Source: Candidatus Nitrospira inopinata
Lineage (GTDB): Bacteria; Nitrospirota; Nitrospiria; Nitrospirales; Nitrospiraceae
Reading direction: 5' to 3'
Assembly (NCBI RefSeq): GCF_001458695.1
Contig: NZ_LN885086.1
Location: forward strand, 2,430,001 to 2,462,000
DNA: 32,000 nucleotides
Positions 13,100 through 30,281 of this stretch are shown in pieces. The notes under the pieces were generated by a model. It searched no databases. It saw only the letters and a program-made list of their open reading frames with translations, and was not told where the DNA came from. Made by a program: the position numbers and the translations under genes. Position 1 is the stretch's first letter, and each line of letters begins with the position of its first letter.

Positions 13100-13128
13100 T
13101 TGACCCTTTCGGCTTCCTTCCGTATCCT
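13100..13128 (+). promoter_or_regulatory. candidate sigma70 promoter of the WYL regulator gene
   Basis: TTGACC (13100-13105), 17 nt, TATCCT (13123-13128). If real, the TTG at 13100 cannot be the start codon and GTG 13157 is favoured. Confidence 0.35.
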
Positions 13129-13156
13129 AGCGTCCGCCTGGATCGCGGGGTGGAGT

Positions 13157-14140
13157 GTGCCGCGCAACGATCAGATTACCCGCCAGTGGCATCTGCTGCG
13201 CCTGTTGGAGTCATCGGCCGGCGTCACGCTGGATGAGTTGAAGGCGCGACTGCCCGCCGACTACTCCCGCCATCTGAGAACCATCCGGCGCGATCTGGAG
13301 GCATTGGAGGCCTCGGGGTTTCCCCTCGTCAATGAGCGAGTCGACGGCCAGGTCCGATGGCGGCTTATGGACGGGGCCCGGCATGCACCGGCCTTGTCGT
13401 TTTCGCCGACCGAGCTGATGGCGCTGGTCATGAGCCGGGCGCTGCTCAAGCCCTTGGCCGGCACCCATATTCAAACGGCCTTGGATTCAGCCATGGCCAA
13501 AGCGTCGAGCCTGCTGCCCCCCGCGTCACTCGACTATGCGCAACAGCTTCAGAACCTGTTTGCCGTGGGATTGGGCCCCCACAAAACCTACAAGTCCCAT
13601 CGCGACACTATCGACCGGCTGACCCAGGCCATCGACCGGCAGCGTACAGTCCAAGTGCGCTACTTTTCCGCGTCGCGCGGCAGGATGACCCGGCGCGAGA
13701 TCGATCCCTATCGCCTCTGGTATGCCTCTGGGGGACTCTATTTAATTGGCTATTGCCATCTTCGCAAAGAACCACGCCTGTTCGCCGTCGAGCGCATCCG
13801 CTCCGTGACACTGACCGACCATCCCTATCAAATGCCGCTCGGTTTCGACTTGGAGGCGTTTGTGCAGGATTCACTCACGGTCATGCGGGGGCCTCGCATT
13901 GAAGTCGAGCTGGTGTTTGACAAAGCGACAGCAGCCTGGGCGAAGGATCGGATCTGGCATCCAAGCCAAAAATTCACGCCTCTTTCAAAGGGGCGACTTC
14001 GCATGGAACTCCAGGTGGCGGATACGAGGGAACTCATCGGGTGGATCTTAAGCTTTGGCAGTGGGGTGCGGGTGATCAGACCGGATCAGTTGAAGGCCGC
14101 CGTCCTGGCGGAGGCGAAGAAGATCCTTGCCGGCGAGTGA
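13157..14140 (+). CDS. HTH-WYL domain transcriptional regulator
   Basis: The ORF is open from 13100. N-terminal winged-helix-like segment (RQWHLLRLLESSAGVTLDELKARL...RTIRRDLEALEASGFPL). Central WYL domain (VQVRYFSASRGRMTRREIDPYRLWYASGGLYLIGYCHLRKEPRLFAVERI). Located immediately upstream of the cas locus. Start codon is uncertain. Confidence 0.8.
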   Translation: MPRNDQITRQWHLLRLLESSAGVTLDELKARLPADYSRHLRTIRRDLEALEASGFPLVNERVDGQVRWRLMDGARHAPALSFSPTELMALVMSRALLKPLAGTHIQTALDSAMAKASSLLPPASLDYAQQLQNLFAVGLGPHKTYKSHRDTIDRLTQAIDRQRTVQVRYFSASRGRMTRREIDPYRLWYASGGLYLIGYCHLRKEPRLFAVERIRSVTLTDHPYQMPLGFDLEAFVQDSLTVMRGPRIEVELVFDKATAAWAKDRIWHPSQKFTPLSKGRLRMELQVADTRELIGWILSFGSGVRVIRPDQLKAAVLAEAKKILAGE

Positions 14141-14326
14141 CCCTTGTTGTCACACGAACAGAGCAGCCGTAGGGGAATCGGTCGTTCTAAACTCCGAATG
14201 ACGCGCATGATTTCGCACCGTGAACGCACGGATGGCTCTGTGACCTTGGTTGTCACGGGCCCGTGCGACACTACAGCCCGATCGGAACCGTTTCGAGCCG
14301 TCTGGAAGGGAAGAAAGGAGGCGGTC

Positions 14327-14695
14327 ATGCGAACGAACACAGGATGGCGCGTCGCCTTGCTGGTCTGTTGCCTATGGCATTCAACGAGCCAAGCCGAGTG
14401 GGGGTTCGATCCGCGCTATCAGCGGGACTACAACATCTTTGCCCCCACTCAGCGGTATGCATCCGACAACCCGCTGAATCTAGTGAACCGGTATGATCCG
14501 GACAACCCCTTTAACCCGGTCAACCGCTATGACCCTGGCAATCCGCTCAACCCCATTCACCGCTACAATCCAAATAATCCCTTTAATCCTGTGAATCGGT
14601 ACCATCCGGACAATCCCTTGAATCCGGCGAACCAGTATAACGTCGATGTGCCCTTTGCACCGTTGAATGGAGGAAAGCCGTCGAGGACATGGTGA
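14327..14695 (+). CDS. small secreted protein with tandem NRYxPxNPxNPx repeats, function unknown
   Basis: AAGGAG site 6 nt before ATG 14327. Signal-peptide-like N-terminus (WRVALLVCCLWHSTSQA/EW). Six degenerate 12-residue repeats follow. The 61 codons upstream in the track ORF (from 14144) have no support. Confidence 0.65.
   Translation: MRTNTGWRVALLVCCLWHSTSQAEWGFDPRYQRDYNIFAPTQRYASDNPLNLVNRYDPDNPFNPVNRYDPGNPLNPIHRYNPNNPFNPVNRYHPDNPLNPANQYNVDVPFAPLNGGKPSRTW
14450..14665 (+). repeat. six degenerate 36-bp (12-codon) tandem repeats inside the NP-repeat gene
   Basis: Units QRYASDNPLNLV / NRYDPDNPFNPV / NRYDPGNPLNPI / HRYNPNNPFNPV / NRYHPDNPLNPA / NQYNVDVPFAPL, read directly from the translation. 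Confidence 0.8.
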
Positions 14696-15289: not shown

Positions 15290-17947
15290 GTGAGCACAGC
15301 AAAGCCTCAGTTTGATCATTTATTTCATCATCTGACAGGAAACAAGCCGTTCCCATGGCAGAAAAAGCTCTACGACGAATTGGTTGGGAATCAATTCCGC
15401 ACCCAGTGCGACGTTCCGACGGGTCTCGGAAAGACATCGGTTATTGCTGTATGGCTTTTAGCCTTGGCCCATCATGCGCAGAACGGTTCACTGAAACAGT
15501 TTCCACGCCGTCTCGTTTATGTGGTGAATCGGAGAACTGTGGTAGATCAGGCAACCCGTGAAGCAGAACGTTTACGAAACGCACTGGCAGATACGCCGGA
15601 ACTTCGGGCTGTCGTTCTCAGCTTGAGAGCACTTGCCGTCGATTCAGAAGGTCCGCCTCTTGCGATCAGCACGTTGCGTGGTCAGTTTGCAGACAATGCT
15701 GAATGGCGCAATGATCCCGCAAGGCCTGCCGTGATCGTTGGCACGGTGGATATGGTGGGGAGCCGCCTGCTCTTCAACGGGTATGGATGCGGCTTTAAAA
15801 GCAAGCCGCTTCATGCAGGTTTTCTAGGGCAGGATGCTCTCGTCATCCATGATGAGGCCCACCTTGAACCGGCCTTCCAGGAGTTGATCTTGGCGGTCCG
15901 CAACGAGCAAGAACGTTGCAGGGAGTTCGGTGTCTTTCATGTGATGGAACTGACGGCAACGTCAAGAACAATGCGGTCAACTCGATGCCCCATCTTTACC
16001 GATGAGGATCTGCGCGACCCGATAGTTAGCAAACGATATAAAGCTAGCAAGAGTCTGAGTTTCCACACTGTTGACGACAAGACGAAGCTAGCCGGCAAAG
16101 TTGCGGAACTTGCGCTCACTCACAAGGAAAGCGGACAGGCCATCTTGGTCTTTCTGCGGGAGCTTGACCAGGTCAAGACAGTGTGTCGAGAACTGGACGA
16201 GGCCAAGCAACAGGTCCAGGTGCTCACGGGTACTCTTCGAGGAAAGGAGCGAGATGATCTGGCGAAGAAGGATCCGATCTTTGCCCGTTTCATGCCACGG
16301 CCCGAAGTCGATCCAGCTCAGGGCACAGTTTATCTGGTGTGCACCTCAGCCGGAGAGGTCGGGGTGGATATCTCTGCTGACCACATGGTCTGTGATCTCA
16401 CGCCATTCGATAGTATGGCTCAGCGCCTTGGTCGTGTGAATCGCTTTGGAGATGGCGCTGCCTCTATTGATGTTGTGCGCGTGGCATCCAAAAAAGATAA
16501 CGGCTCACAGGAGAAGAATGAGGAACGGTCGCCGCTCGAATTGGCCATAGAACGAACCCGATCACTACTGGCCAAGCTTCCGAGCCAAACCGACGGCTCG
16601 TTTGACGCCAGTCCGATGGCCCTGCGTGGCTTGCCGGCAGCCGAGTGGCTGGCTGCGTGTGCACCATCGCCGGTGATCTGTCCTGCGACCGACATTCTGT
16701 TCGACGCGTGGGCTCTGACATCGATGAATGAAAAGCTGCCCGGCAGACCACCAGTCGCCGATTGGCTGCACGGCGTGGCGGAGTGGGAGCCGCCTGAAAC
16801 CTATGTGGCCTGGCGCGAGGAGGTCGAAGTGATCCATGGAGATTTATTGACTCGATACAAGCCAGAGGATCTGCTCGAAGACTATCCGCTCAAGCCACAT
16901 GAACTGCTACGTGACCGTTCCGATCGAGTTCGCAAAGAGCTAGAGAAAATCGCTGCACGCGAACTGGATTGCTCGTGCTGGCTTCTTGATGCCAATGGTG
17001 AAATCCGCGTGCTGAGGACTGGTGAACTTATCCAGAAAGACAAGCAGAAGAAGCCGGTAATTGATCTAAAAGACTGCACCGTGATTCTGCCTCCCAAGGC
17101 CGGAGGGTTGAAGAAGGGTTTGTTAGAGGGGGATGAACCGTTTGATGAGGGTCAAGGAATTAGCTACGACGTGTCAGATCAGTGGTTCGACGACGATGGA
17201 CGGCCAAGGCGCGGTCGGGTCTGGGATGATACCAGGCCTCCATCAGGGATGCGGCTTGTGCGAACAATTGACACTTGGGTGGGCAGGCTGGAAGACATGG
17301 AAGAGGAGTACGAAGAAAGTGTGCAACGGTATTGGCGGTGGTACGTTCGACCACGATCGGCAGATGATGATGGTTCGCGAACCGCACGGCTGCCGCAAGA
17401 CTTGCAGGAGCATCTCAAAGCGGTTGAGGACATGGCGGGCAAGCTCACCGCCAAGCTTGGCTTACAGGAGTCTGAAGCTTCGGCAGTTAAAATGGCGGCT
17501 CGGTGGCATGATCTGGGGAAGAACCGCGCCATCTGGCAGCGATCGATCGGTAACCATGACTATCCACAACGCGTGCTGGCGAAATCTGGTGGCACCGCAA
17601 CACCCGTGGACCTCTCGCCCTATCGACATGAATTCGGCTCGTTGCTCGAAATACAGCGGTGTGATGAGTTTCAACAAGTTGACGGGCACATCCAAGATCT
17701 AGTTCTACACCTGGTGGCGGCGCACCACGGACGGGCTCGCCCCCACTTCCCTGTTAATGAAGCATTTGATCCTGACTATCCGGACGGCGAAGCTGTCCAA
17801 CTTGCTCGTGAAGTGCCGCGGCGATTTGCCCGCCTGCAGCGAAAGTACGGCCGCTGGGGACTCGCGTATCTCGAATCGTTGGTGCGGGCTGCCGACGCGT
17901 TAGCCTCGCAGGCGCTCGGTTCAAACGGGGCAATGGGACCGAATTAA
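15290..17947 (+). CDS. cas3: type I-G CRISPR-associated helicase/nuclease Cas3 (helicase N-terminal, HD domain C-terminal)
   Basis: 885 aa, GTG start. Motif I VPTGLGKT, DEAH box VIHDEAHL, motif VI QRLGRVNRFG. C-terminal HD motifs ARWHDLGK and LVAAHHGRARP, the order typical of the GSU0051-type Cas3. Confidence 0.9.
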   Translation: MSTAKPQFDHLFHHLTGNKPFPWQKKLYDELVGNQFRTQCDVPTGLGKTSVIAVWLLALAHHAQNGSLKQFPRRLVYVVNRRTVVDQATREAERLRNALADTPELRAVVLSLRALAVDSEGPPLAISTLRGQFADNAEWRNDPARPAVIVGTVDMVGSRLLFNGYGCGFKSKPLHAGFLGQDALVIHDEAHLEPAFQELILAVRNEQERCREFGVFHVMELTATSRTMRSTRCPIFTDEDLRDPIVSKRYKASKSLSFHTVDDKTKLAGKVAELALTHKESGQAILVFLRELDQVKTVCRELDEAKQQVQVLTGTLRGKERDDLAKKDPIFARFMPRPEVDPAQGTVYLVCTSAGEVGVDISADHMVCDLTPFDSMAQRLGRVNRFGDGAASIDVVRVASKKDNGSQEKNEERSPLELAIERTRSLLAKLPSQTDGSFDASPMALRGLPAAEWLAACAPSPVICPATDILFDAWALTSMNEKLPGRPPVADWLHGVAEWEPPETYVAWREEVEVIHGDLLTRYKPEDLLEDYPLKPHELLRDRSDRVRKELEKIAARELDCSCWLLDANGEIRVLRTGELIQKDKQKKPVIDLKDCTVILPPKAGGLKKGLLEGDEPFDEGQGISYDVSDQWFDDDGRPRRGRVWDDTRPPSGMRLVRTIDTWVGRLEDMEEEYEESVQRYWRWYVRPRSADDDGSRTARLPQDLQEHLKAVEDMAGKLTAKLGLQESEASAVKMAARWHDLGKNRAIWQRSIGNHDYPQRVLAKSGGTATPVDLSPYRHEFGSLLEIQRCDEFQQVDGHIQDLVLHLVAAHHGRARPHFPVNEAFDPDYPDGEAVQLAREVPRRFARLQRKYGRWGLAYLESLVRAADALASQALGSNGAMGPN

Positions 17948-17961
17948 AGCCGAGGGAGGAG

Positions 17962-18789
17962 TTGGCATTGGTGGACACAAATCCTAAGCCAGAGATCAGC
18001 GTCCATGTGGACCCAGCGAATCCCGGTCAATTCTTTGCATGCTGCGGGTTGCTGGAACTGGCCGATCGCCTGTGGGACGGGGCAGAGGGATGGTTTCAGG
18101 ACGACGTCTTCAAGGTCTTGACCAAAGGAACATTAGAGGAGCTGCTTAAAATGCTTGTAAAAGACTTGCCGGCGGAGGTGACCAGCCTTGAAAAAGGCTT
18201 GACCGTCAAGCCTCTTATTGCACCGCTGCGGTTGTCTTTGGGAGTAGGAGATCGAGATCGCCTTACGCTTGATGCCTGGATGGTGATCCGGACTGAAAAG
18301 CAAAAGTTGGTTGCCGCTGCGAATCCCCCGTGGAACTTCTGGTCAGGGCAGCAAACACCGCTGCGGATTTGGACTACACTGCGTGACGCGCTACGTCAGC
18401 AACTCGAAGAGTTAAAGCCATCTCAATACGACGATCTATTCAGTCTGTTGGTGCCCTTACCAGGGCGGTTTGGCTTTGATCCTGGTGCTGCTTGGAATGC
18501 CTTAGATGTCGGGTTCTCACCGAATGAGCAAGATATTCCCGTGTCCTCATCACCTGCGACAGAGTCGCTTGCCGCTATAGGGATTCAGCGCTTTCGGCCA
18601 TTGCTCTCGGATGACCGCATGACCTTTGAGTACTCGACATGGGGCCAGCCACTTCCTCCGTCGGTTGCTTCTGGAGCAGCATCGGGTATCGTCGAAGTTG
18701 GGCCGAGAGTGCGATTTCGTGGGCGTGTAATCAGTCGTGGTAGCTATGCGGCCCTTGGTTACTCCATCCAGATTGAAAGGAGCGAATGA
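17962..18789 (+). CDS. putative type I-G large-subunit-like protein (Cas8g2/Cas8u2, GSU0052-like)
   Basis: 275 aa. Called mainly by position between cas3 and cas7g, as in the Geobacter-type I-U/I-G operon. GAGGGAGGA site precedes the TTG start. 4-nt overlap with the next gene. Family assignment not verified. Confidence 0.55.
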   Translation: MALVDTNPKPEISVHVDPANPGQFFACCGLLELADRLWDGAEGWFQDDVFKVLTKGTLEELLKMLVKDLPAEVTSLEKGLTVKPLIAPLRLSLGVGDRDRLTLDAWMVIRTEKQKLVAAANPPWNFWSGQQTPLRIWTTLRDALRQQLEELKPSQYDDLFSLLVPLPGRFGFDPGAAWNALDVGFSPNEQDIPVSSSPATESLAAIGIQRFRPLLSDDRMTFEYSTWGQPLPPSVASGAASGIVEVGPRVRFRGRVISRGSYAALGYSIQIERSE

Positions 18790-19952
18790 TGAACGAACTA
18801 TTGGAAAAGTATGACTCGTGGCTTAAAGATGATAGCAATGTCGCAGCGGTGACGGTGCGGCAGTGGCTTGAACCGGTTGAAGGTAAAGACGCCATTATTT
18901 TCCCGCCTACCTACCCAATTGAAGGTAATGCTGGCTACTCGATCGACCGCATCGATGGGTTTACTGTTTGTCAAATCGATAGCGTGGGATCACAAGCAAA
19001 CCGTATCGAGCCCATTTTTTTGCGGGAGCAATATTGCGACCTTGTGCCGAAGGTGATCATTAGAGCGACGGTGGATGGCAGGGAGAGGTCTATTCATCTT
19101 CTTGAGGCTGGCCACCGTGCAGCGGATGCCATTGTCCGCTTTTCAACGCTCGGAGCGCGGATTCACGAGGCATTTCGGGCTATCCATGAGAACGGTGATG
19201 CAACTCTCTTGGCACGCATTGCGCCAACCTCCCTCGTCTTCGGTGTTTGGGATTCCCGAGCAACGCAAGTGAAACTTCCGAGAGTGCTTCGCTCAGTCAT
19301 CCGCGCATTTGACGTGTACGAGTTGCACCGTTCCGCTCAATATTCAACTCTTGCTGGAGAGCTCTTGGAGGGCCCAGATGTGGAAGTGACAACAAAGGGT
19401 GTGAAAGCGGAGCTAGGTCTAGCCCACGTACCCTCTGTTAAAACCCATGGTGGTATCAGGGTTAAAGGCGAAATTCGAAGGGATGCCGCCTTAAACGTTG
19501 TTGCAATTCGCTCTTTGGCATCAGGGCCTGACAACGAGATAGGCACTCTCTCACTGCGTCGTTACGTTCTTGGGTTGGCTCTGGTTGGACTCACATTCGA
19601 ACAAGACTTCTCACTTCGAGAAGGCTGCCAGCTCATACCAGACAAAGGACGTCCGCCTGAATGGAAAATTATTCTCCACGATGGCACACGCAAAGACATT
19701 GTGCTAACGCACAGGGAATCGATTGAGTACGCAAGGAAAGCCGCGGAACAGTTTGGTATCGGCCAAGATGCCACAGGCGAATTCGAAGCAATGCTTGCCC
19801 GCAAAATCCAGGAACTTCCGGAGAAAGATCGCAAGGCGTTGTTGCGCAAGGGGCCTGTGACAATGGAAGCAATAGAGGAGTTCTTGAAGAAGAGAAAAAC
19901 GAAAGGGAAAACCACGAAGGAACCTGACGCTTCCGAAGGAGGCGAGGAGTGA
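18786..19952 (+). CDS. csb1: type I-G Cas7 backbone protein (Csb1/GSU0053 family)
   Basis: 388 aa. Segments IIFPPTYP and IDSVGSQANRIEP match my recollection of the GSU0053 family. Translationally coupled on both sides (ATGA and GTGA overlaps). Confidence 0.75.
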   Translation: MMNELLEKYDSWLKDDSNVAAVTVRQWLEPVEGKDAIIFPPTYPIEGNAGYSIDRIDGFTVCQIDSVGSQANRIEPIFLREQYCDLVPKVIIRATVDGRERSIHLLEAGHRAADAIVRFSTLGARIHEAFRAIHENGDATLLARIAPTSLVFGVWDSRATQVKLPRVLRSVIRAFDVYELHRSAQYSTLAGELLEGPDVEVTTKGVKAELGLAHVPSVKTHGGIRVKGEIRRDAALNVVAIRSLASGPDNEIGTLSLRRYVLGLALVGLTFEQDFSLREGCQLIPDKGRPPEWKIILHDGTRKDIVLTHRESIEYARKAAEQFGIGQDATGEFEAMLARKIQELPEKDRKALLRKGPVTMEAIEEFLKKRKTKGKTTKEPDASEGGEE

Positions 19953-21517
19953 CAGTCCATCTTTGCATCTCAGTAACGTTTATTGATCCATTGTTTCATG
20001 GAAGAGGTGACCACGAAGAACCTGAGTGGCCGCCTTCGCCGTTACGGCTCTTTCAAGCCATGCTATCAGGAGCACGAATTGCGTCTGGCTGTCACGTTCC
20101 AGGCGATGACTTCAAAGCGTTCTTGTGGTTGGAAAAGCAGAATGCGCCGCAAATAGTTGCACCATTAGCGCGGGAAATGGCTGCTCGTCGCTACTATGTG
20201 CCTAATAACGATAGTGACAAGAAATTCGAGAGGCAGGATCGACTTGCCGAGAAAATATTCCAACCTCATCGAATGTGCGGCAACGATTCAACCACAGTTC
20301 ATTACGTTTGGGCTCTCCGTAGCTCTCTGTTGGGTGAGGAACCCACGCGCATCGAGATACTCAAAGGTGTTGCCCGTAAACTTGTTGCATTGGGTTGGGG
20401 CATCGACATGGCTGTCGGACATGCTGCAGTGCTGTCCGATGAAGAGGTCAAAGCCTTACCCGGTGAGCGGTGGGTACCAGGGAGAGAAGGCAGTGCAGGG
20501 GGGTTGCGTGTGCCGGTGCCCGGCGCGCTCAAGGCCCTTATTGCGCGGCATGAACGTTTTCTCAAACGGGTGCGAGAAGACGGCACATTTGATCCCACGC
20601 CGCCCTTGCAAGAGTCTGTGTATAAGCGAGTCGAATATCGCCGGGTCACTGATCCACCGCTGAGGTCTTTCGCGGCGTTTTCACTTCTGAAGCTCGATGC
20701 CAGCCGGTTCCAGCCATTTGATCCAGTGGGTAGAGGGCTAACCTTGGCAGGGATGTTGCGGCACACGGTGGCATGTGCTGCTCGTCGCGCGGGATGGCCT
20801 GAGTCGACAATCAACGCCTTCGTCCTTGGACACGGGGGATCGAAGAACGGGCATCACGTTCCTGTCGGTCCTCACCGGTTTGCCTATTTGCCGCTCCCGA
20901 GTCTCGAGGGACGCGGCGAGGGGAAATCGCGTGTTGTTGGAAATATCCGCCGAATCCTGCTCACGTCCTTTACAGAAGACTGTGAGGTTAAGGTCGGCTG
21001 GGCGCGCCGGGCTTTGTCGGGCTGTGATCTTATCGATGAGGAGCACAGGCGGTCCGTAGCGATGCTATCGCTTCTTCCCAATAATGAAAAGATCGTGCGT
21101 TGCTATGTCGAGCCTGCCGATACCTGGGCAACTGTCACACCCGTTGTCTTGCCTGGCTACGATGACCCGGCGCACTATCGAAGACGATTGAAGAAAGTGA
21201 CGACTGCCGACGAGCAAAGGCGGTTGCTTGAGCGGCTGGACGAGCGCATTGACCGCTTGCTGCGCAAGGCTATTGTCCAGGCGGGTTTTTCTCACGAGCT
21301 TGCCACCCATGCAGAACTGCAATGGCGGAAATCAGGATTCTGGCCGGGAACTGATCTCGCTGACCGTTATGGTGTGCCCGACCACTTGAAACGGTTTTCC
21401 CGGTGGCATGTGCAGTTGCGCTGGCGGGATGCACAGAGGCGGCTCATCGCGGTGTCAGGCCCTCTGTGCTTGGGGGGCGGCCGCCATTACGGCTTGGGGC
21501 TTTTTGCGGCGGTGTAG
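19949..21517 (+). CDS. csb2: type I-G Csb2 (Cas5-Cas6 fusion, GSU0054 family)
   Basis: 522 aa. N-terminal FHGRGDHEEPEWPPSPLRLFQAM signature and C-terminal glycine-rich RAMP loop LCLGGGRHYGLGLF. Confidence 0.8.
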   Translation: MTVHLCISVTFIDPLFHGRGDHEEPEWPPSPLRLFQAMLSGARIASGCHVPGDDFKAFLWLEKQNAPQIVAPLAREMAARRYYVPNNDSDKKFERQDRLAEKIFQPHRMCGNDSTTVHYVWALRSSLLGEEPTRIEILKGVARKLVALGWGIDMAVGHAAVLSDEEVKALPGERWVPGREGSAGGLRVPVPGALKALIARHERFLKRVREDGTFDPTPPLQESVYKRVEYRRVTDPPLRSFAAFSLLKLDASRFQPFDPVGRGLTLAGMLRHTVACAARRAGWPESTINAFVLGHGGSKNGHHVPVGPHRFAYLPLPSLEGRGEGKSRVVGNIRRILLTSFTEDCEVKVGWARRALSGCDLIDEEHRRSVAMLSLLPNNEKIVRCYVEPADTWATVTPVVLPGYDDPAHYRRRLKKVTTADEQRRLLERLDERIDRLLRKAIVQAGFSHELATHAELQWRKSGFWPGTDLADRYGVPDHLKRFSRWHVQLRWRDAQRRLIAVSGPLCLGGGRHYGLGLFAAV

Positions 21518-21699: not shown

Positions 21700-22230
21700 G
21701 TGAGAGACTGGAAGGCCAAACGTCCCCGGTGCATTGTGATTGCCGGGCCAAACGGCGCGGGGAAGACAACGTTCGCGCGAGAGTTTCTCACTCGAGAGGC
21801 GGGCGTGATTCACTTTGTCAATGTTGATTTGATCGCGAGCGGACTCTCGCCCCTTCGCCCAGAACTGGCGGCGCGGCGGGCAGGACGGCTTGTATTGGCG
21901 GAACTCAACCGATTGGCAAGGGCCCGCAAGGATTTTGCCTTTGAGAGCACGTTGAGTGGGCGGACCTACCTCGGAATGCTCAGACGGTGGAAAACCGCCG
22001 GTTATCGAATCGAGATGGTGTTCCTGCTGTTGCCGTCGGTCGAACTGGCGCTCCGACGTATTGCAGTGCGAGTTCGACAAGGCGGGCACAACGTGCCACG
22101 GGGTGACGTCATCCGGCGTTTTGGCCGAAGTTGGAACAACTTTCGAACGCTCTATCGTCCCTTGGCAGATGTGTGGGTTGTGTATGACACTTCAGGAGAG
22201 ATCCCACAATTATTGGAGGAAGGTCCATGA
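21700..22230 (+). CDS. zeta-toxin-like P-loop ATPase/kinase (COG4185-like)
   Basis: 176 aa, GTG start. Walker A IVIAGPNGAGKTTFAREF, then FESTLSG and the QGGHNVPRGDVIRRFGRS segment typical of this small AAA/zeta-like family. Confidence 0.75.
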   Translation: MRDWKAKRPRCIVIAGPNGAGKTTFAREFLTREAGVIHFVNVDLIASGLSPLRPELAARRAGRLVLAELNRLARARKDFAFESTLSGRTYLGMLRRWKTAGYRIEMVFLLLPSVELALRRIAVRVRQGGHNVPRGDVIRRFGRSWNNFRTLYRPLADVWVVYDTSGEIPQLLEEGP

Positions 22231-22385
22231 GGCAGAAAAATGGTATGCCGGAGACCAAAGCATTCGTTCGGATGGTTCGTCGAGCGTTGCGACGCGCCTT
22301 CAAGATGGCTAGGAAAGCGGCGCAAGCGCACCACACACCCATTTATCTCTGGCGTAATGGCAAGGTTGTGGCGGAGAAACCATGA
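22227..22385 (+). CDS. 52-aa basic ORF translationally coupled to the ATPase (possible cognate antitoxin or partner)
   Basis: Not in the ORF track (under 60 aa). ATG 22227 overlaps the ATPase stop as ATGA. Translation: MRQKNGMPETKAFVRMVRRALRRAFKMARKAAQAHHTPIYLWRNGKVVAEKP. It ends 17 nt before the right 21-nt repeat copy. Confidence 0.45.
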   Translation: MRQKNGMPETKAFVRMVRRALRRAFKMARKAAQAHHTPIYLWRNGKVVAEKP

Positions 22386-22401
22386 AAGAGAAAACCTCTG
22401 G

Positions 22402-22422
22402 CAGTTCATGCCGGCGGGGGAG
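22402..22422. repeat. right copy of the 21-nt direct repeat bracketing the ATPase cassette
   Basis: CAGTTCATGCCGGCGGGGGAG. One transition relative to 21558-21578. Confidence 0.8.
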
Positions 22423-22508
22423 TCGGAGCGTTGTTGATGGCTCGTGCGAGGTGAAGCGCGTGGCGGCAAAGCGGTCAACGGCCGATCGCTGTGGGAAAGG
22501 AGGGCCCT

Positions 22509-22940
22509 ATGTGGTGGATGGTCATGATGATAGTGATGGTGTTCACCGGTCCGGGCTCTACCCGGGCGGAGTATCTCGGCGACTTGAGCGCCAATCCGTT
22601 CAACCCGAATTCCCTGGCGAATCCTTTCGGCGTCGGCTCGCCGTTTCTTTACAAGAGCCCAACGAACCCGTTTGGGCCCTATGGCAGTCCGTTCAGCAAT
22701 CGGTCGGCGACCAATCCCTTTGCGACGCAGGCCCCGCGACTCTATGACCGGGCAGGAAACTACCGAGGCCGGTTAAGCGCGAACCCGTATGATCCCGACT
22801 CCATCAGCAACCCCTTCGGGCGCTATGGCAATCCCTTCTCGCCCGACAGCGTGAACAATCCGTTCGGGGCGGGCAGTCCGTTCCGGTTCGACAGCCCCAA
22901 CAACCCCTACGGCTCGGGGTGGATCATCGTCGGGGAATGA
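22509..22940 (+). CDS. small secreted NPF/NPY-repeat protein, function unknown
   Basis: GGAAAGGAGGG site before ATG 22509 (the track ORF opens at GTG 22491). Hydrophobic signal-like N-terminus MWWMVMMIVMVFTGPGSTRA/EY. Nine NPF or NPY motifs follow (ANPFNP, ANPFGV, TNPFGP, TNPFAT, ANPYDP, SNPFGR, GNPFSP, NNPFGA, NNPYGS). Confidence 0.65.
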   Translation: MWWMVMMIVMVFTGPGSTRAEYLGDLSANPFNPNSLANPFGVGSPFLYKSPTNPFGPYGSPFSNRSATNPFATQAPRLYDRAGNYRGRLSANPYDPDSISNPFGRYGNPFSPDSVNNPFGAGSPFRFDSPNNPYGSGWIIVGE

Positions 22941-22977
22941 GATGCCCGTGGAGAAGGCACAAGAGACGGGCGATGCG

Positions 22978-23577
22978 CTACGGGAGCAAATCGGCGACGG
23001 CGATGGATGCGGTAGGGGCAGCGAGCAGCGAAATGGTGTCGGAGGGGCCGAGCTTGACGTGTGAACGGTACGACGCCGGTTGGCCGGAGGGTGTGACGGG
23101 ATCGCGGAAAACTTCCAGACACCGTTCCAAAAGGTTGATGATCCAGTATTCCGGGATGCCGGCTCGGGCGTAGAGCGGGGCTTTCCGGTCACGGTCGAGG
23201 GAAAGCGTTGTATCGGCGACCTCGACGACGAGCATCGCCGTGCGAGGATGCTCTTTTAAATATTCTTCTGGGTCGCCCGGCACCACCGCCAGGTCCGGTT
23301 CCGGCTCCGAGTCAGGATCAATCAAGAGGGGCATTTGTATGCGGACCCAGAACCCCTGTCCGAAGATGCGCTCGAGGACGCGCTGTGTTTTGCCGATGGT
23401 GACGGCATGCGGACTATTCCGCGGGGTCATCGCGATGATCTCTCCCTCAATCAATTGGATGTGCTCATTCGGATCAAGAATGCCCGATTCAGCCAAACGG
23501 TCATATTCCTGGCAGGTCCAGCGTTTGGTGTGGACGGTGGGAGCAGACATCGTCGGCCTCATATCATCAATTGTCAA
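22978..23577 (-). CDS. Uma2 family (DUF820) putative PD-(D/E)xK endonuclease
   Basis: Family-typical segments: WTCQEYDRLAESGIL, IQLIEGEII, EPEPDLAVV, LVVEVADTTLSLDRDRKAPLYARAGIPEYWIINL. The likely true start is ATG 23550, which has GAGG 6 nt upstream. The ORF opens at TTG 23577. Confidence 0.8.
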   Translation of the reverse strand: MTIDDMRPTMSAPTVHTKRWTCQEYDRLAESGILDPNEHIQLIEGEIIAMTPRNSPHAVTIGKTQRVLERIFGQGFWVRIQMPLLIDPDSEPEPDLAVVPGDPEEYLKEHPRTAMLVVEVADTTLSLDRDRKAPLYARAGIPEYWIINLLERCLEVFRDPVTPSGQPASYRSHVKLGPSDTISLLAAPTASIAVADLLP

Positions 23578-23615
23578 AAGTCTAGCAAACAGCCTGGCGG
23601 CTCACAAGCACAGGG

Positions 23616-23838
23616 TCCCGTTCTTTGACAACTGAATAGTTTCAGGCCCTCTGCCGATAAGAGAGGGTATGGAACGCGAAGCATTTGCCGATGGAGCAGG
23701 GAACGAGGCGATGCCCTTGCTCCCTGCTCGGATGGTCAACGAATTTGCCTATTGCCCGCGGCCCGCCTATTTCGAATGGGTAGATGGGGTCTTCGCCGAC
23801 AGTGCCGACACGGTGGAGGGCCGGTTTCCATACCGTTC
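23616..23838. repeat. copy 1 of a ~223-bp direct duplication (cas4-cas1 upstream region plus first ~56 codons)
   Basis: Offset to copy 2 is exactly 757 bp. There are 4 mismatches in the first 205 bp, and similarity decays over the last ~18 bp. Confidence 0.9.
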
Positions 23839-23881
23839 CCGCGGTATTTGGAGAAGAAAGGGAATGCCCAAAATTCTTTAG
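23669..23881 (+). pseudogene. cas4: truncated cas4-cas1 5' fragment
   Basis: MEREAFADGAGNEAMPLLPARMVNEFAYCPRPAYFEWVDGVFADSADTVEGRF is near-identical to the N-terminus of the intact gene at 24426. The reading frame then runs into unrelated sequence and stops. Confidence 0.85.
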
Positions 23882-24090
23882 AGCAGGTCTTTGAACCGTT
23901 CGAGAGAAATGTCGGCAGCGTCAAGGATGTGTTTCAGTGTCCCGGGCTTGATGACATGATGCCGGGGAATAATGACGATCTGTTTCTCGTTAGTCATCGA
24001 AATATGTTTGCCCTCGCGCAGGACAGAGAAGCCGGCTCGTTTCAGGGCTCTCACGACACGTTCATGAGAGACCTGCGGGAGCTTGCTCAT
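23878..24090 (-). CDS. hicA: HicA family mRNA-interferase toxin
   Basis: 70 aa. SHERVVRALKRAGFSVLREGKHISM...IIPRHHVIKPGTLKHIL is typical of HicA/YcfA. 4-nt overlap with hicB. Confidence 0.85.
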   Translation of the reverse strand: MSKLPQVSHERVVRALKRAGFSVLREGKHISMTNEKQIVIIPRHHVIKPGTLKHILDAADISLERFKDLL

Positions 24091-24290
24091 GCGCCGACTA
24101 CGACGGTTCTCAATTTCTTAAGTCGCTTCAAATCCTCGATGCTCTCGAGGTAGATCTTGATGGCATCCTTGATGTTTTCCAGGGCTTCTTCCTCGGTCTC
24201 GCCCTGCGAGACACAGCCCCTGAGCGTCGGGCAATACACCACGTACCCGCCGGCTTCCCGATCCTGCTCAACGATGACGGGATATTCCAT
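24087..24290 (-). CDS. hicB: HicB family antitoxin (UPF0150 fold)
   Basis: 67 aa. MEYPVIVEQDREAGGYVVYCPTLRGCVSQGETEEEALENIKDAIKIYLE is typical of the HicB N-terminal domain. Confidence 0.85.
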   Translation of the reverse strand: MEYPVIVEQDREAGGYVVYCPTLRGCVSQGETEEEALENIKDAIKIYLESIEDLKRLKKLRTVVVGA

Positions 24291-24372: not shown

Positions 24373-24595
24373 TCCCGTTCTTTGACAACTGAATAGTTTC
24401 AGGCCCTCTGCCGATAAGAGAGGGTATGGAACGCGAAGCATTTGCCGATGGAGCAGGGAGCGAGGCGATGCCCTTGCTCCCTGCTCGGATGGTCAACGAA
24501 TTTGCCTACTGCCCGCGGCTCGCCTATTTCGAATGGGTAGATGGGGTCTTTGCCGACAGTGCCGACACGGTGGAGGGTCGCTTCCATCACCGGCA
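24373..24595. repeat. copy 2 of the ~223-bp direct duplication (functional cas4-cas1 5' end)
   Basis: See copy 1. Both copies include the palindrome ACTGAATAGTTTCAG and the AGAGAGGG ribosome-binding site. Confidence 0.9.
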
Positions 24596-26150
24596 GGTGG
24601 ATCGCGAGCCGGTCAGGCCGACCCGACGAGCGGCAGATGGTGACGAGCAAGAGCCTGTATTGCACCAGCGGTCGGTCTGGCTGTCATCCGAACGGCTGGG
24701 CGTCACGGCCAAGATCGATCTGGTGGAAGGAGAGGTGCCGTCACCAGATGGCCAACCACAAGTTGTCACGCCCGTGGATTACAAACGTGGCAAACGTCCC
24801 CACACGGCCAAGGGTGCGTGGGAGCCGGAGCAAGTGCAGCTTTGCTTGCAAGGGTTGCTGCTCCGCGAGCAGGGCTATCGGTGCGACCGCGGAATCCTCT
24901 ATTTCGTCGGCTCCCGGGAACGAGTGCCCATCGAATTCGATGAGACCTTGATTGGGCGGACATTGGAGTTGGTGGAGGGTATGCGCGCCATGACCAGGCA
25001 GGCGGTTGCGCCACCGCCGTTGGTCGACAGCCCCAAATGTCCGCGCTGTTCGCTGGTGGGGCTGTGCCTGCCTGATGAAATCGGCTGGTTGCGTCAGGCT
25101 GGAGAAGGTGAGGCGCCGGCAGTTCGTCAATTGTTGCCGTCACGGGATGATGCCCTGCCGCTGCACGTCCAAACCCCCGGTGCCAGAATTGGCAAAGAGG
25201 GTGACTGTTTAGTGATCAAAGATCATGACGAGATCCTCGGCGAAGCTCGGTTGGTGGAAACCTCCCAGGTGGTGCTCTATGGTGCAGTTCAAGTGAGCAC
25301 GCAAGTGGTTCAGGAACTATGCAAGCGCGAGATTCCACTCATCTATTGTTCGAGCGGGGGCTGGTTCTATGGACTGACGACTGGTCTCCCGCACAAACAT
25401 GTCGAACTTCGACGACGCCAATATACAGCGGCGGCCGACCCGGTACAGTGCCTGCGACTGGCCAAACGGTTTGTCCAAGCCAAGATCGCCAATTGCCGCA
25501 CATTGATCCGTCGCAATCATCCCGATGTGCCGGATCTGCTGTTGCAGGAGCTCAAGGTGGATCAAGGCCAGGCCGGCGAAGCAGGGTCCCTGGAGTCGCT
25601 GCTCGGCGTCGAAGGCACAGCGGCCCGTCGGTACTTCGGTGCGTTTGGGGCTCTGGTGCGGGATGAAGCGATGCGGGCTCGGTTTGATGCCGAAGGACGC
25701 AATCGCCGTCCACCACGGGATCCAATCAATGCGCTCCTGTCGTTTGCCTATGCGATATTGGCGAGGGAATGGACGGTGGTGGTGCACAGTGTGGGGCTCG
25801 ATCCGTATCTGGGCTTTTATCACCAGCCGCGCTACGGGCGTCCGGCGTTGGCGCTCGACATGATGGAAGAGTTTCGGCCGTTGATTGCCGATTCGGTGGT
25901 GCTGACGGCCGTCAATAATGGCGAAGTACAGAGTGCCGATTTCATCCAGCGACTGGGGAGTGTCAGTCTCACACCGGAAGGGCGGCGGAAGTTTATCGCG
26001 ACCTACGAGCGTCGTATGAGTCAGGAGATCACGCATCCGGTTTTCGGCTATCAAGTCAGCTATCGTCGGGTGTTGGAGGTGCAGGCAAGATTGTTGGGCC
26101 GGTATCTGCTGGGGGAGATTCCAGAACTGCCGCCGATCATCACCCGGTAA
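24426..26150 (+). CDS. cas4/cas1: Cas4-Cas1 fusion (adaptation nuclease/integrase)
   Basis: 574 aa. Cas4 half: N-terminal YCPR cysteine, DLVEGE...VDYKRGK RecB-type motif, C-terminal CPRCSLVGLC cluster cysteines. Cas1 half: GVEGTAARRYF, NALLSFAYAIL, GLDPYLGFYHQPRYGRPALALDMMEEFRP. Confidence 0.93.
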   Translation: MEREAFADGAGSEAMPLLPARMVNEFAYCPRLAYFEWVDGVFADSADTVEGRFHHRQVDREPVRPTRRAADGDEQEPVLHQRSVWLSSERLGVTAKIDLVEGEVPSPDGQPQVVTPVDYKRGKRPHTAKGAWEPEQVQLCLQGLLLREQGYRCDRGILYFVGSRERVPIEFDETLIGRTLELVEGMRAMTRQAVAPPPLVDSPKCPRCSLVGLCLPDEIGWLRQAGEGEAPAVRQLLPSRDDALPLHVQTPGARIGKEGDCLVIKDHDEILGEARLVETSQVVLYGAVQVSTQVVQELCKREIPLIYCSSGGWFYGLTTGLPHKHVELRRRQYTAAADPVQCLRLAKRFVQAKIANCRTLIRRNHPDVPDLLLQELKVDQGQAGEAGSLESLLGVEGTAARRYFGAFGALVRDEAMRARFDAEGRNRRPPRDPINALLSFAYAILAREWTVVVHSVGLDPYLGFYHQPRYGRPALALDMMEEFRPLIADSVVLTAVNNGEVQSADFIQRLGSVSLTPEGRRKFIATYERRMSQEITHPVFGYQVSYRRVLEVQARLLGRYLLGEIPELPPIITR

Positions 26151-26218: not shown

Positions 26219-26509
26219 ATGCGGCGCTGCTATTTAGTGGCGTACGACATCGCCGATCCCAAGCGACTGCGTCGGGTGTATAAGACGATGAAAGGATACG
26301 GTGCGCATGTGCAATTGTCCGTCTTCCAGTGCGATCTGCCGGAGATGGACCTCATTCGGATGAAGGCAGCGCTGACGGAGATCATTCACCACAAAGAAGA
26401 TCAGGTGCTGATCATCGACTTAGGGCCGACTGACAGTCACCCCATCAAGCGATTTGAAGCCTTGGGCATGGCGATCGAGGTGGAGGAGCGACAGCCTCGC
26501 GTGATATAG
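26219..26509 (+). CDS. cas2: CRISPR-associated endoribonuclease Cas2
   Basis: 96 aa. YLVAYDIADPKRLRRVYKTMKGYGAHVQLSVFQCDL is typical of Cas2. Confidence 0.92.
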   Translation: MRRCYLVAYDIADPKRLRRVYKTMKGYGAHVQLSVFQCDLPEMDLIRMKAALTEIIHHKEDQVLIIDLGPTDSHPIKRFEALGMAIEVEERQPRVI

Positions 26510-26752
26510 ACGGTCTCGAGAGAAGATGCTCGTGCCGTGAGCAGCGCGAGCGGTGTGGTGATGAGCAAGCGATAAGCAGGCGCTCGCGTCACCGTATCGA
26601 GGGCAAGAGAAAGCAACGATTCATAATGGGCAAAAGAGAGATGTTGAAGGAGGTGAGTGCAGAGATATCTATGACAGGAGCATTGAAGGTGTTGGTATGT
26701 GCTCGCAACGTGCGAGTAGGAGAGCAAGAAAACAGGCACATAGCCAAGTGCC
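26510..26752 (+). promoter_or_regulatory. CRISPR leader
   Basis: 243 bp of non-coding, locally AT-richer sequence between the cas2 stop and the first repeat. Repeat degeneracy lies at the far end of the array, which supports this as the leader side. Confidence 0.6.
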
Positions 26753-29700
26753 ATTTCCGCGGCTGAAACGCCGCGGCCCCATTGAAGCTTCATCAACATG
26801 ACGTATGCGGAGCCCACAGAAGATTATTTCCGCGGCTGAAACGCCGCGGCCCCATTGAAGCGCACCGACTGTGGCGTCCGGCGTGGAGACGCTCACCAAC
26901 GATTTCCGCGGCTGAAACGCCGCGGCCCCATTGAAGCACGGCATTCCCAATGAGGCGCCACCGCTCTCGTTCGATTTCCGCGGCTGAAACGCCGCGGCCC
27001 CATTGAAGCGAGTTAAAGCAGTACGGATTTCAGTGGATTCCGTATATTTCCGCGGCTGAAACGCTGCGGCCCCATTGAAGCTGGACAGCTGGCATCATCC
27101 GAACTGCACGTGCTTCTATTTCCGCGGCTGAAACGCCGCGGCCCCATTGAAGCGATCCCTCGATCGATGCTCACGTCGGCGATGGCGAGAATTTCCGCGG
27201 CTGAAACGCCGCGGCCCCATTGAAGCGAATCGGAGGCCGGTGAATGTCACACGGGTGCCTTGATTTCCGCGGCTGAAACGCCGCGGCCCCATTGAAGCTC
27301 AGGAGTCTAGAGGTTGTAAGCCGCCAATACCTGATTTCCGCGGCTGAAACGCCGCGGCCCCATTGAAGCTTTTGCGTGGCGCGGGTGAAGATGCCCGCGC
27401 AATACGATTTCCGCGGCTGAAACGCCGCGGCCCCATTGAAGCGACACGTAGAAGTGCCGGTAACGACAGCAACCCCAAGATTTCCGCGGCTGAAACGCCG
27501 CGGCCCCATTGAAGCGCTAGCCATGTCTCCCGTTCTACGGGTTGCATCGCGATTTCCGCGGCTGAAACGCCGCGGCCCCATTGAAGCAGCGGTTGGCGTT
27601 TCGGTTCTTTTGCCGTGTACGCCCATTTCCGCGGCTGAAACGCCGCGGCCCCATTGAAGCACGAGCTTCAACTGATTTTTGAGCGCACTCTGAACCGATT
27701 TCCGCGGCTGAAACGCCGCGGCCCCATTGAAGCGGGTTCTCAAACAACAACGTATCCACGCCTTCGAGTGATTTCCGCGGCTGAAACGCCGCGGCCCCAT
27801 TGAAGCCCAGTGTCTTGGCGGTCGTATCGACGCTCCGATCCGCATTTCCGCGGCTGAAACGCCGCGGCCCCATTGAAGCGAAAAATGAAAACCGGAACGA
27901 TAAACGAGACATACGTTATTTCCGCGGCTGAAACGCCGCGGCCCCATTGAAGCGGGGATACAACCCCCGAAGATTTGGAAGCCGCCCTCGATTTCCGCGG
28001 CTGAAACGCCGCGGCCCCATTGAAGCCACGAACACGTCGGCCACGGTACATGTCCGGTGGGGCGATTTCCGCGGCTGAAACGCCGCGGCCCCATTGAAGC
28101 AAGACCGTAGGAATCGCGACGGGGACACGGTATGGCCATTTCCGCGGCTGAAACGCCGCGGCCCCATTGAAGCCCCAACACCCTCTGACACCCTCCGACA
28201 CACCAGCCGATTTCCGCGGCTGAAACGCCGCGGCCCCATTGAAGCGACCAAGCTGAAGAAATCCCTGGCGACCGTTGGCAGATTTCCGCGGCTGAAACGC
28301 CGCGGCCCCATTGAAGCCACGTTGAGTCTCCTTATAGCGCCCAGGCGGTTGACATTTCCGCGGCTGAAACGCCGCGGCCCCATTGAAGCCGACCCCGCCC
28401 CACGCATCACGGCCCACCCATCCGCATTTCCGCGGCTGAAACGCCGCGGCCCCATTGAAGCCCCCCAGACCCCCCTCCGCTTCCCCCTCCGGGCAGATTT
28501 CCGCGGCTGAAACGCCGCGGCCCCATTGAAGCAACATGAGTTGTCCGGCGGGGAATTCTCCGCTCGCGAGATTTCCGCGGCTGAAACGCCGCGGCCCCAT
28601 TGAAGCTACGCCAATTGTGTGCGTTTTTCGTCGAACGGGAGAAATTTCCGCGGCTGAAACGCCGCGGCCCCATTGAAGCCGGAACATCGGCTCACTCTCT
28701 GGTATCGTGACACATAATTTCCGCGGCTGAAACGCCGCGGCCCCATTGAAGCATCAGGAAAAGGGCGTATCTGACCTGTTTTTCTGTTATTTCCGCGGCT
28801 GAAACGCCGCGGCCCCATTGAAGCCTCATATTTGAATTGTGTGCGAATGAGGGGCATATGGCTATTTCCGCGGCTGAAACGCCGCGGCCCCATTGAAGCA
28901 GGCGACACAACCCCCGAAGATCTAGAAGCTGCGTTATTTCCGCGGCTGAAACGCCGCGGCCCCATTGAAGCGATGTGGACTGGCTTGTGGAGCTCGGTGT
29001 GTGTCGATTTCCGCGGCTGAAACGCCGCGGCCCCATTGAAGCCCCGGATCGGCGGGCGCGCCCGGTGCGGTGCCTTCATTTCCGCGGCTGAAACGCCGCG
29101 GCCCCATTGAAGCCACAATCTCCCGTCTTTTTTGCTATGACGCGGGTGTAATTTCCGCGGCTGAAACGCCGCGGCCCCATTGAAGCATCGTCCCCCAAGA
29201 CTTGGTCTTCGCGGCGGCGGCAGATTTCCGCGGCTGAAACGCCGCGGCCCCATTGAAGCATCGTCCCCCAAGACTTGGTCTTCGCGGCGGCGGCAGATTT
29301 CCGCGGCTGAAACGCCGCGGCCCCATTGAAGCCGAGAACGTGAAGAACACTAGGGGGAACTACATATGCGATTTCCGCGGCTGAAACGCCGCGGCCCCAT
29401 TGAAGCGCGGTCAAGTTAATCGTGGTGCCGTTGGCGCAGTTCATTTCCGCGGCTGAAACGCCGCGGCCCCATTGAAGCCGCCGCCTCATGCCGTCCCTCC
29501 GTCCCGCCCCGGTCCCCATTTCCGCGGCTGAAACGCCGCGGCCCCATTGAAGCATCCAGCAGTGAGTCCGTGACGAACATTCAGGTGCTGATTTCCGCGG
29601 CTGAAACGCCGCGGCCCCATTGAAGCTCGGAATCGCCGAGCACGGAGAACGCGATTCACATCATTTCCGCGGCTGAAACGCCGCGGCCCCATTGAAGCGA

Positions 29701-30281
29701 GTCATAGAAGAGGAACTGAAAAATAAGCAACAACCCATTTCCGCGGCTGAAACGCCGCGGCCCCATTGAAGCTGATCCGCGACCTGGCCGGCGTAGGCCC
29801 GTCTCCAGATTTCCGCGGCTGAAACGCCGCGGCCCCATTGAAGCGTGTCCGGACCCGCCCAAGCCACCCCCCCCTCCCCCCATTTCCGCGGCTGAAACGC
29901 CGCGGCCCCATTGAAGCTCTGCCCCCCAAGGGGGCATGGAGAGGAACCCTTAATTTCCGCGGCTGAAACGCCGCGGCCCCATTGAAGCACGTCCGATGGC
30001 ACTTTGCCATGCCGTTAAGGGGCTATTTCCGCGGCTGAAACGCCGCGGCCCCATTGAAGCTCATGGTGCGAGAGTGTCGCGAGGCTTCCGTCTAGAAATT
30101 TCCGTGGCTGAAACGCCGCGGCCCCATTGAAGCTCACAACACGCAGCGACCTCCTCGCTCGAACAGGACGCATTTCCGCGGCTGAAACGCCGCGGCCCCA
30201 TTGAAGCTGGACTCCAACGCAGGCGCGTCGGAATGGGCGCGCTGTATTTCCGCGGCTGAAACGCTGCGGCCCCATTGAAGC
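26753..30281 (+). CRISPR. CRISPR array, 49 repeats and 48 spacers
   Basis: 36-nt repeat ATTTCCGCGGCTGAAACGCCGCGGCCCCATTGAAGC, counted by hand. Internal 7-bp hairpin CCGCGGC/GCCGCGG with a TGAAAC loop. The ATTGAAGC 3' end resembles I-C/I-G repeats. Spacers are 35-40 nt. Variant repeats are at 27046, 30098 and 30246. Confidence 0.98.

Follow-up and report, generated by a model that had tools for sequence, protein, structure and literature searches.

The type I-G CRISPR array of Ca. Nitrospira inopinata, an environmentally important comammox nitrifier whose viruses are, to our knowledge, essentially unknown, contains two spacers (numbers 17 and 30) that differ in nucleotide sequence and can both be read as one and the same peptide. 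This raises the question of what the array has recorded: a single capture and its altered copy, or two captures, and in that case from what sources. The array lies in a stretch of 32,000 nucleotides (contig NZ_LN885086.1, positions 2,430,001 to 2,462,000 of the forward strand), which is here called the window. The coordinates of the relevant features are collected in Table 1.

Table 1 Genes, array and spacers considered here, numbered from the first nucleotide of the window.
Feature	Position	Strand	Remarks
cas3g (type I-G helicase/nuclease)	15290..17947	+	TIGR02621, 669 bits
cas8g2	17962..18789	+	TIGR04106, 147 bits
cas7g / csb1	18786..19952	+	TIGR02570, 128 bits
csb2 (Cas5-Cas6-like)	19949..21517	+	TIGR02165, 345 bits
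cas4g/cas1g fusion (adaptation, PAM selection)	24426..26150	+	NF049935, 795 bits; Cas4 and Cas1 domains
cas2	26219..26509	+	TIGR01573
Leader	26510..26752	+	From cas2 to first repeat; entry end for new spacers
CRISPR array	26753..30281	+	49 repeats of 36 nt, 48 spacers of 35-40 nt
Spacer 17	27954..27990	+	37 nt, GGGGATACAACCCCCGAAGATTTGGAAGCCGCCCTCG; frame for GDTTPEDLEAAL opens at base 1
Spacer 18	28027..28064	+	Adjoins spacer 17; 34/38 to T7-like viral contig, L283 6719-6756, - strand
Spacer 30	28900..28935	+	36 nt, AGGCGACACAACCCCCGAAGATCTAGAAGCTGCGTT; older of the pair

The array belongs to a complete, standard type I-G operon, which lies directly upstream and on the same strand. The scores against TIGR02621, TIGR04106, TIGR02570 and TIGR02165 all exceed the curated cut-offs, and the Cas proteins are identical to Ca. 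Nitrospira inopinata CUQ67482.1 (the Cas4/Cas1 fusion) and CUQ67470.1. Several features that mark a locus as type I-G are present: the effector genes, a Cas4/Cas1 fusion and Cas2 beside the array, a spacer length near 36 nt, and a repeat that is palindromic and has a 3' end of the ATTGAAxC type. The repeat, ATTTCCGCGGCTGAAACGCCGCGGCCCCATTGAAGC, is 36 nt long and ends in ATTGAAGC. It has a hairpin of 7 bp (-14.7 kcal/mol), and on the + strand it scores 35.1 bits against Rfam CRISPR-DR16, for which the gathering score is 35. The spacer length mode is 36-37 nt among the 48 spacers. The remaining window is ordinary chromosome, with ftsH, folP, glmM, comEC, tyrS and other genes; the window as a whole corresponds to NCBI contig CZJZ01000009.1.

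The polarity of the array can be read from its natural variants, three of which were recovered from metagenomes (JGI 3300044940, 3300045922 and 3300045912). Spacers 7-48 are common to all of them, the cas2-proximal spacers differ, and two extra internal spacers are the sole difference outside the cas2-proximal end. Since it is the cas2-proximal spacers that vary, new spacers enter at that end, and spacer 30 therefore predates spacer 17. All three further variants contain the two spacers with their order unchanged, and 12-14 other spacers lie between them. Duplication does occur within the array: spacers 34 and 35 do not differ at a single position.

When spacers 17 and 30 are aligned with an offset of 1 nt, they agree at 28 of 35 positions, including an exact run of 15 nt (ACAACCCCCGAAGAT). 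Relative to spacer 17, the start of spacer 30 lies 1 nt further upstream and its end falls 2 nt short. The second-best non-identical pair among the 48 spacers has 21/36 matches. In 30 shuffled spacer sets the best pair per set had 20-26 matches; the value of 26 was reached in one set only, and is caused by C-rich spacers.

Translation in six frames gives the two spacers a common peptide, GDTTPEDLEAAL, in + frame 0 alone, the remaining five frames producing 2-6 residue differences or stops. Six of the seven nucleotide differences are certainly silent in this frame. The seventh (C/T) opens the final Leu codon (CTC versus TTn), and is silent only if the source of spacer 30 continued with a purine. 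In the array, spacer 30 is followed by A; every repeat invariably begins with this base, however, and it is not assignable to the protospacer. The 11 complete codons contain 6 synonymous differences at 8.3 synonymous sites, giving a pS of 0.72 and a dN of 0, in statistics that draw on just 12 codons. A simulation that placed 7 random substitutions in spacer 17 left the translation of one or more of the six frames unchanged in 0.04-0.12% of trials.

The positions, sequences and 1-nt-offset alignment of the two spacers as described in the sequence-only reading are thus correct, as is the identical peptide in one frame of the + strand. Its statement that all seven differences are silent holds outright for six and conditionally for the last. 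It had further proposed that homologous sites in a protein-coding gene gave rise to both spacers, with the spacer (crRNA-sense) strand as the coding strand. Both proposals are supported by a silent-only pattern that is confined to one frame of six and has a P of about 1e-3.

Identification of the target gene was approached by sequence searches. A degenerate-codon pattern for GDTTPEDLEAAL had 0 matches in viral, metagenome and genome contigs, an absence that is weak evidence, given that the same scans missed the window's own array too, source records being absent or masked. When spacer 17 and the whole array were compared by blastn with 50,697 phage records there was no spacer-level match, and the same search of 72,556 plasmid records returned only repeat-like arrays and chance pieces. 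The more tolerant pattern [DE]TTP[DE][DE]x[DE]AA was found in 17 viral contigs. The seventeenth match is due to chance and the other 16 are all from one family, PF09979 (DUF2213; phrog_16985/1961/530), which is a phage head maturation protease/scaffold family. The motif directly follows the protease domain, and reads DTTPEDLEAA (10/12) in 15 IMG/VR contigs and DTTPEDMEAA in one.

This made the PF09979 head protease a candidate for the target, which on further analysis was downgraded. The best nucleotide matches of the spacers to PF09979 genes are 24-28/36, and none of these is the near-identical nucleotide match expected of a true protospacer. The full peptide GDTTPEDLEAAL is present in 0 of 270 PF09979 proteins (120 listed from 90% clusters and 150 from 50% representatives), and among the 150 representatives, which were scored for identity to the spacer peptide, the highest value is 9/12. 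At the position where spacer 30 has A as its first base, the invariant Asp codon of PF09979 (GAY) would have C or T. Unrelated cellular proteins carry the motif as well. In metagenomes and genomes the tolerant pattern had at least 120 matches in many unrelated cellular families, including HD-domain proteins (DTDTTPEELEAAFG), SDR, HAD and PheT-like proteins (WDTTPEDLEAAL, 11/12). A search of a 5.8-billion-protein collection using a motif-only profile with random flanks yielded 21 word-sharing candidates, none at E <= 10, with a word index that is too sparse for a 12-mer. The spacer peptide appears to be a generic motif of the TPE(D/E) type, which in our own reading may cap a helix. Its presence in unrelated cellular proteins means that the target gene is not established.

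More direct information on the invaders comes from other spacers of the array. Viral contigs were scanned with IUPAC patterns, each uniting two spacers; two of the patterns found a match and the others none. In the array variant from 3300045922, the third most recent spacer has a 36/36 match to IMGVR_UViG_3300045912_000797. This 19.7-kb contig, from a sample in which the host is present too, belongs to a P22-like podovirus and carries genes for portal, major head and tail spike. The 5' flank of this perfect protospacer is TTG. In 13 phage contigs related to the P22-like phage by their portal protein, neither the motif nor another spacer match was present. Spacer 18, which is the neighbour of spacer 17, matches the T7-like contig IMGVR_UViG_3300025889_000925, to which GenBank phages are just ~25% identical. 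All four mismatches are synonymous in a viral ORF on the spacer-sense strand. Spacer 18 is thus a direct example, in the same array, of the silent divergence that is proposed for spacers 17 and 30. The flank of its protospacer is CTG, the C being the wobble base of an Asn codon, and AAT in place of AAC in that codon would turn CTG into TTG, so that a silent change of the PAM may have taken place. The data points on the PAM are two in number (n = 2), namely TTG at a perfect match and CTG at a diverged relative with 34/38 identities. For the I-U/I-G system of Geobacter sulfurreducens a TTN PAM has been shown experimentally, together with 36-bp spacers (PMC6547450). The site of spacers 17 and 30 is found in neither the P22-like contig, nor the T7-like contig (11.3 of 24.2 kb examined), nor the 13 portal-related contigs. 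The P22-like and T7-like contigs are in themselves leads for Nitrospira virology.

On the basis of these observations, we consider it likely that spacers 17 and 30 are two independent captures, both on the sense strand, of homologous coding sites from two diverged relatives of one invader. Cas4/Cas1-Cas2 would have captured the same short coding stretch twice, on separate occasions, from two diverged copies of a gene, taking spacer 30 and later spacer 17. The carriers of the gene copies would be related invaders, probably tailed phages. Both insertions would give a crRNA with the sense of the mRNA, which is irrelevant for a type I system that targets DNA. The peptide is presumably under strong purifying selection, and this would explain why the two sources differ at silent positions only. 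Whether the site is coding, its frame, the PAM and the kind of invader are here deduced from the spacers themselves rather than from protospacers, and are accordingly given as probable. In addition, given how common this type of peptide is in cellular families, the two sources could be homologous genes on quite different elements.

The separate nature of the captures, already claimed in the sequence-only reading, is supported by the offset, the different lengths, the 12-14 intervening spacers and the greater age of spacer 30 in the array variants. The same reading spoke of variants of an evolving element. The two diverged sources stand, but the divergence was understated: a pS near saturation implies distinct relatives that share a conserved motif, and not a recent escape mutant. 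It had also deduced a shared PAM, and here the nearly identical register holds, but an identical PAM does not, as an offset of 1 nt means overlapping triplets. Combined with a TTN PAM, this offset allows both captures to be canonical only if the flank is TTT; otherwise one of them slipped. A run of T upstream (TTT-A, followed by GGN), providing two overlapping TTN PAMs, would be the simplest account. It would put Leu (TTA) before the Gly, and PF09979 proteins have Asp there.

The seeds of type I systems are a basis for expecting little cross-interference between variants. On the other variant, the crRNA of spacer 17 would have mismatches at positions 3, 6, 22, 24, 30, 33 and 34, and that of spacer 30 at positions 4, 7, 23, 25, 31, 34 and 35. 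The seed is thereby affected at position 3 for spacer 17 and at positions 4 and 7 for spacer 30, which suggests that each spacer probably guards against its own variant only, and that the pair widens the coverage.

Several other explanations can be weighed against two independent captures. The least probable, to the point of being negligible, is a chance resemblance between unrelated spacers. It draws on the one shuffled set in 30 that reached 26 matches, but 28/35 with a 15-nt run lies above all the shuffles, only about 1e-3 shared 15-mers are expected among 48 spacers, and the silent-only pattern comes in addition; chance was rejected on the silent-only statistics. Hardly more credible is the idea that spacer 30 was duplicated within the array and that the copy then drifted to become spacer 17. 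The identical spacers 34 and 35 offer a precedent for duplication, but that pair is without any difference, and drift in an array is blind to codon position, which leaves an all-silent outcome with a P of about 1e-3. Moreover, the register differs at both ends (by 1 nt at the 5' end and 2 nt at the 3' end) while the repeats are intact. Duplication followed by drift was rejected on these codon-aware substitutions and register shifts. A more serious competitor, though still an improbable one, is that the two sources belong to unrelated elements, as homologous genes or as genes that merely have the motif in common (one could, for instance, be a phage gene and the other a plasmid-borne or host-like cellular gene), or that they are paralogues in one element. 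The wide occurrence of the motif in cellular proteins, up to 11/12 in the PheT-like case, and the saturated synonymous divergence are both consistent with this. True homology is indicated, on the other hand, by 12 identical residues, the 15-nt run and a register within 1 nt, and 16 of the 17 viral matches to the motif come from a single phage family.

It is also conceivable, although we think it unlikely, that spacer 17 arose by priming: spacer 30 would have bound a diverged phage imperfectly, with seven mismatches of which two are in the seed, and the same site would have been taken again with a shift of one base. The mismatch number falls within the priming range of other type I systems, a range that Fineran and co-workers reportedly described in 2014. 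I-U/I-G systems do prime on mutated protospacers, and the primed spacers track PAM density without location bias (PMC6547450), so that hitting the same site is not favoured by priming. Spacer 18 is phage-derived as well, and spacers 17 and 18 could therefore share one episode; however, the 17/30 site is absent from the 11.3 kb examined of the T7-like contig, and 12-14 spacers separate spacer 30 from spacer 17. A particular form of primed re-capture, to which we give very little weight, is that the 1-nt shift put all six flipped-out positions of the Cas7 backbone (6, 12, ... 36) on wobble bases. In the register of spacer 17, three of the seven known silent differences are at flipped positions (6, 24 and 30), and in the register of spacer 30 none are. 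If this were true, those three differences would not count as mismatches, and spacer 17 would be tolerant of silent drift, in what is a single case. The survival of type I spacers under synonymous drift of their targets would then depend in part on their phase with respect to the reading frame. Independent capture from two diverged relatives is nevertheless the explanation that we prefer.

It remains to compare the pair with known systems. Slipped spacer acquisition, by one nucleotide in either direction, is known in type I-E and I-F systems. The Nitrospira pair resembles it in that the PAM-proximal end is shifted by 1 nt between captures of one site, and differs from it in that a TTT flank would make both captures canonical. 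The locus as a whole is similar to the I-U/I-G system of Geobacter sulfurreducens (Almendros et al., 2019; PMC6547450), with Cas3g, Cas8g2, Cas7g, Csb2, a Cas4/Cas1 fusion and Cas2, spacers of about 36 nt, and a PAM of the TTN type (TTG) at one perfect protospacer. Unlike that system, the Nitrospira array is a natural one known from sequence, its repeat is different, and its PAM is derived from two protospacers, of which one is perfect and the other (CTG) imperfect. That a protospacer can be captured again independently is documented for the type I-C system of Legionella pneumophila (PMC5071653). Those captures were from one identical plasmid under laboratory priming, whereas here the sources would be two natural copies that had diverged strongly, and the register differs by 1 nt. 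In Clostridium difficile, related phages differ from spacers by silent and non-silent changes in the protospacer and PAM (PMC4173771). Synonymous changes of this kind are seen directly for spacer 18 and the T7-like contig. Repeat capture, silent divergence and PAM drift are thus already known as phenomena, and no concept is changed. In contrast to C. difficile, however, both variants are recorded within one array and not in phage genomes, and the pair is a clean and statistically supported array record of diverged relatives of one invader gene, which were probably encountered on two occasions.

Two viral contigs carry matches to spacers of this array or its relatives. Spacer 18 (window 28027-28064) agrees at 34 of 38 positions with the T7-like viral contig IMGVR_UViG_3300025889_000925 (6719-6756 of its readable part L283, - strand). 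The match lies within a viral ORF (L283 6585-7067, - strand), and all four mismatches are synonymous, so that spacer and ORF both encode TNTSATVHVRWG. The 5′ flank of the match is CTG, in which the C corresponds to the wobble position of an Asn codon; were that codon AAT, the flank would again be a TTG PAM. The CTG may represent a silent escape from PAM recognition.

The second match is to the third-newest spacer, GAGATTCACTGCCGTGTCGCTGCCTTCCTTGGCCGC, of a sister array (L004 / L008, JGI 3300045922). It is identical at 36 of 36 positions to 12960-12995 of L269, the P22-like podovirus contig IMGVR_UViG_3300045912_000797, where the protospacer has a TTG PAM and the spacer is oriented antisense to a 1136-aa ORF. 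The sample that yielded this contig also contains the host array (variant L287). The podovirus is a candidate phage of Nitrospira inopinata.

Spacers 7-48 are common to the window array and the metagenomic array variants L001, L004 and L287, and at the leader end the variants carry five to eight spacers that differ from those of the window (compared region: window 26789-27190). The variants also contain two internal spacers, between 24 and 25 and between 29 and 30, both of which are absent from the window. These differences together indicate turnover at the leader end, and loss of internal spacers in the lineage of the window. Spacers 34 and 35 (window 29187-29223 and 29260-29296) agree at all 37 positions, a spacer-repeat unit having been duplicated exactly in tandem, and L001 also carries this duplication. 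At a contig end of the variant from JGI 3300045922 (L004 14700-14992) the spacer order is 30-31-30, which is probably an artefact of assembly over repeats and not a true second copy of spacer 30. The Logan assemblies L009 and L010 contain spacer 48 only, probably through assembly collapse.

Five window spacers have at least 20 C in their 35–39 nt (listed below), and no spacer reaches 20 G. These extreme spacers are all C-rich on the same strand, and encode proline-rich peptides in some frames. They may come from a single Pro-rich coding region or from a strand-biased source. Over the spacers as a whole, the C-G skew is symmetric.

In the cas locus, non-cas genes separate csb2 from cas4/cas1 (window 21700-24290). 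Upstream of cas3g, a regulator gene is followed by a 183-aa ORF (the two spanning window 13100-14695) that contains five 12-residue tandem repeats resembling NRYDPDNPLNPV; TRF reports a period of 36 at 14453-14638, within this ORF, for which no family match was found.

Window coordinates of the C-rich spacers and of non-cas genes in and around the cas locus
Feature	Position	Strand	Remark
C-rich spacer 20	28174-28209		
C-rich spacer 23	28390-28425		
C-rich spacer 24	28462-28496		
C-rich spacer 38	29479-29517		
C-rich spacer 43	29845-29881		
AAA_33/zeta-toxin-like kinase	21700-22230		
Uma2-family endonuclease	22978-23577	-	
HicA/HicB toxin-antitoxin pair	about 23878-24290	-	
WYL/WCX-domain regulator	13100-14140		upstream of cas3g

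Of the 49 repeats, 46 are identical. The remainder carry C>T variants (window 27065, 30105 and 30265), alike in repeats 5 and 49 and at a different C in repeat 47. The 3′ ends of the spacers are enriched in G, and the base preceding each repeat (for example 27990 and 28935) is G in 21 cases, C in 12, T in 9 and A in 6. The spacer-repeat boundary is therefore uncertain by 1 nt, since this variable base falls at the first position of the Rfam model CRISPR-DR16, which is 37 nt long and begins with G.
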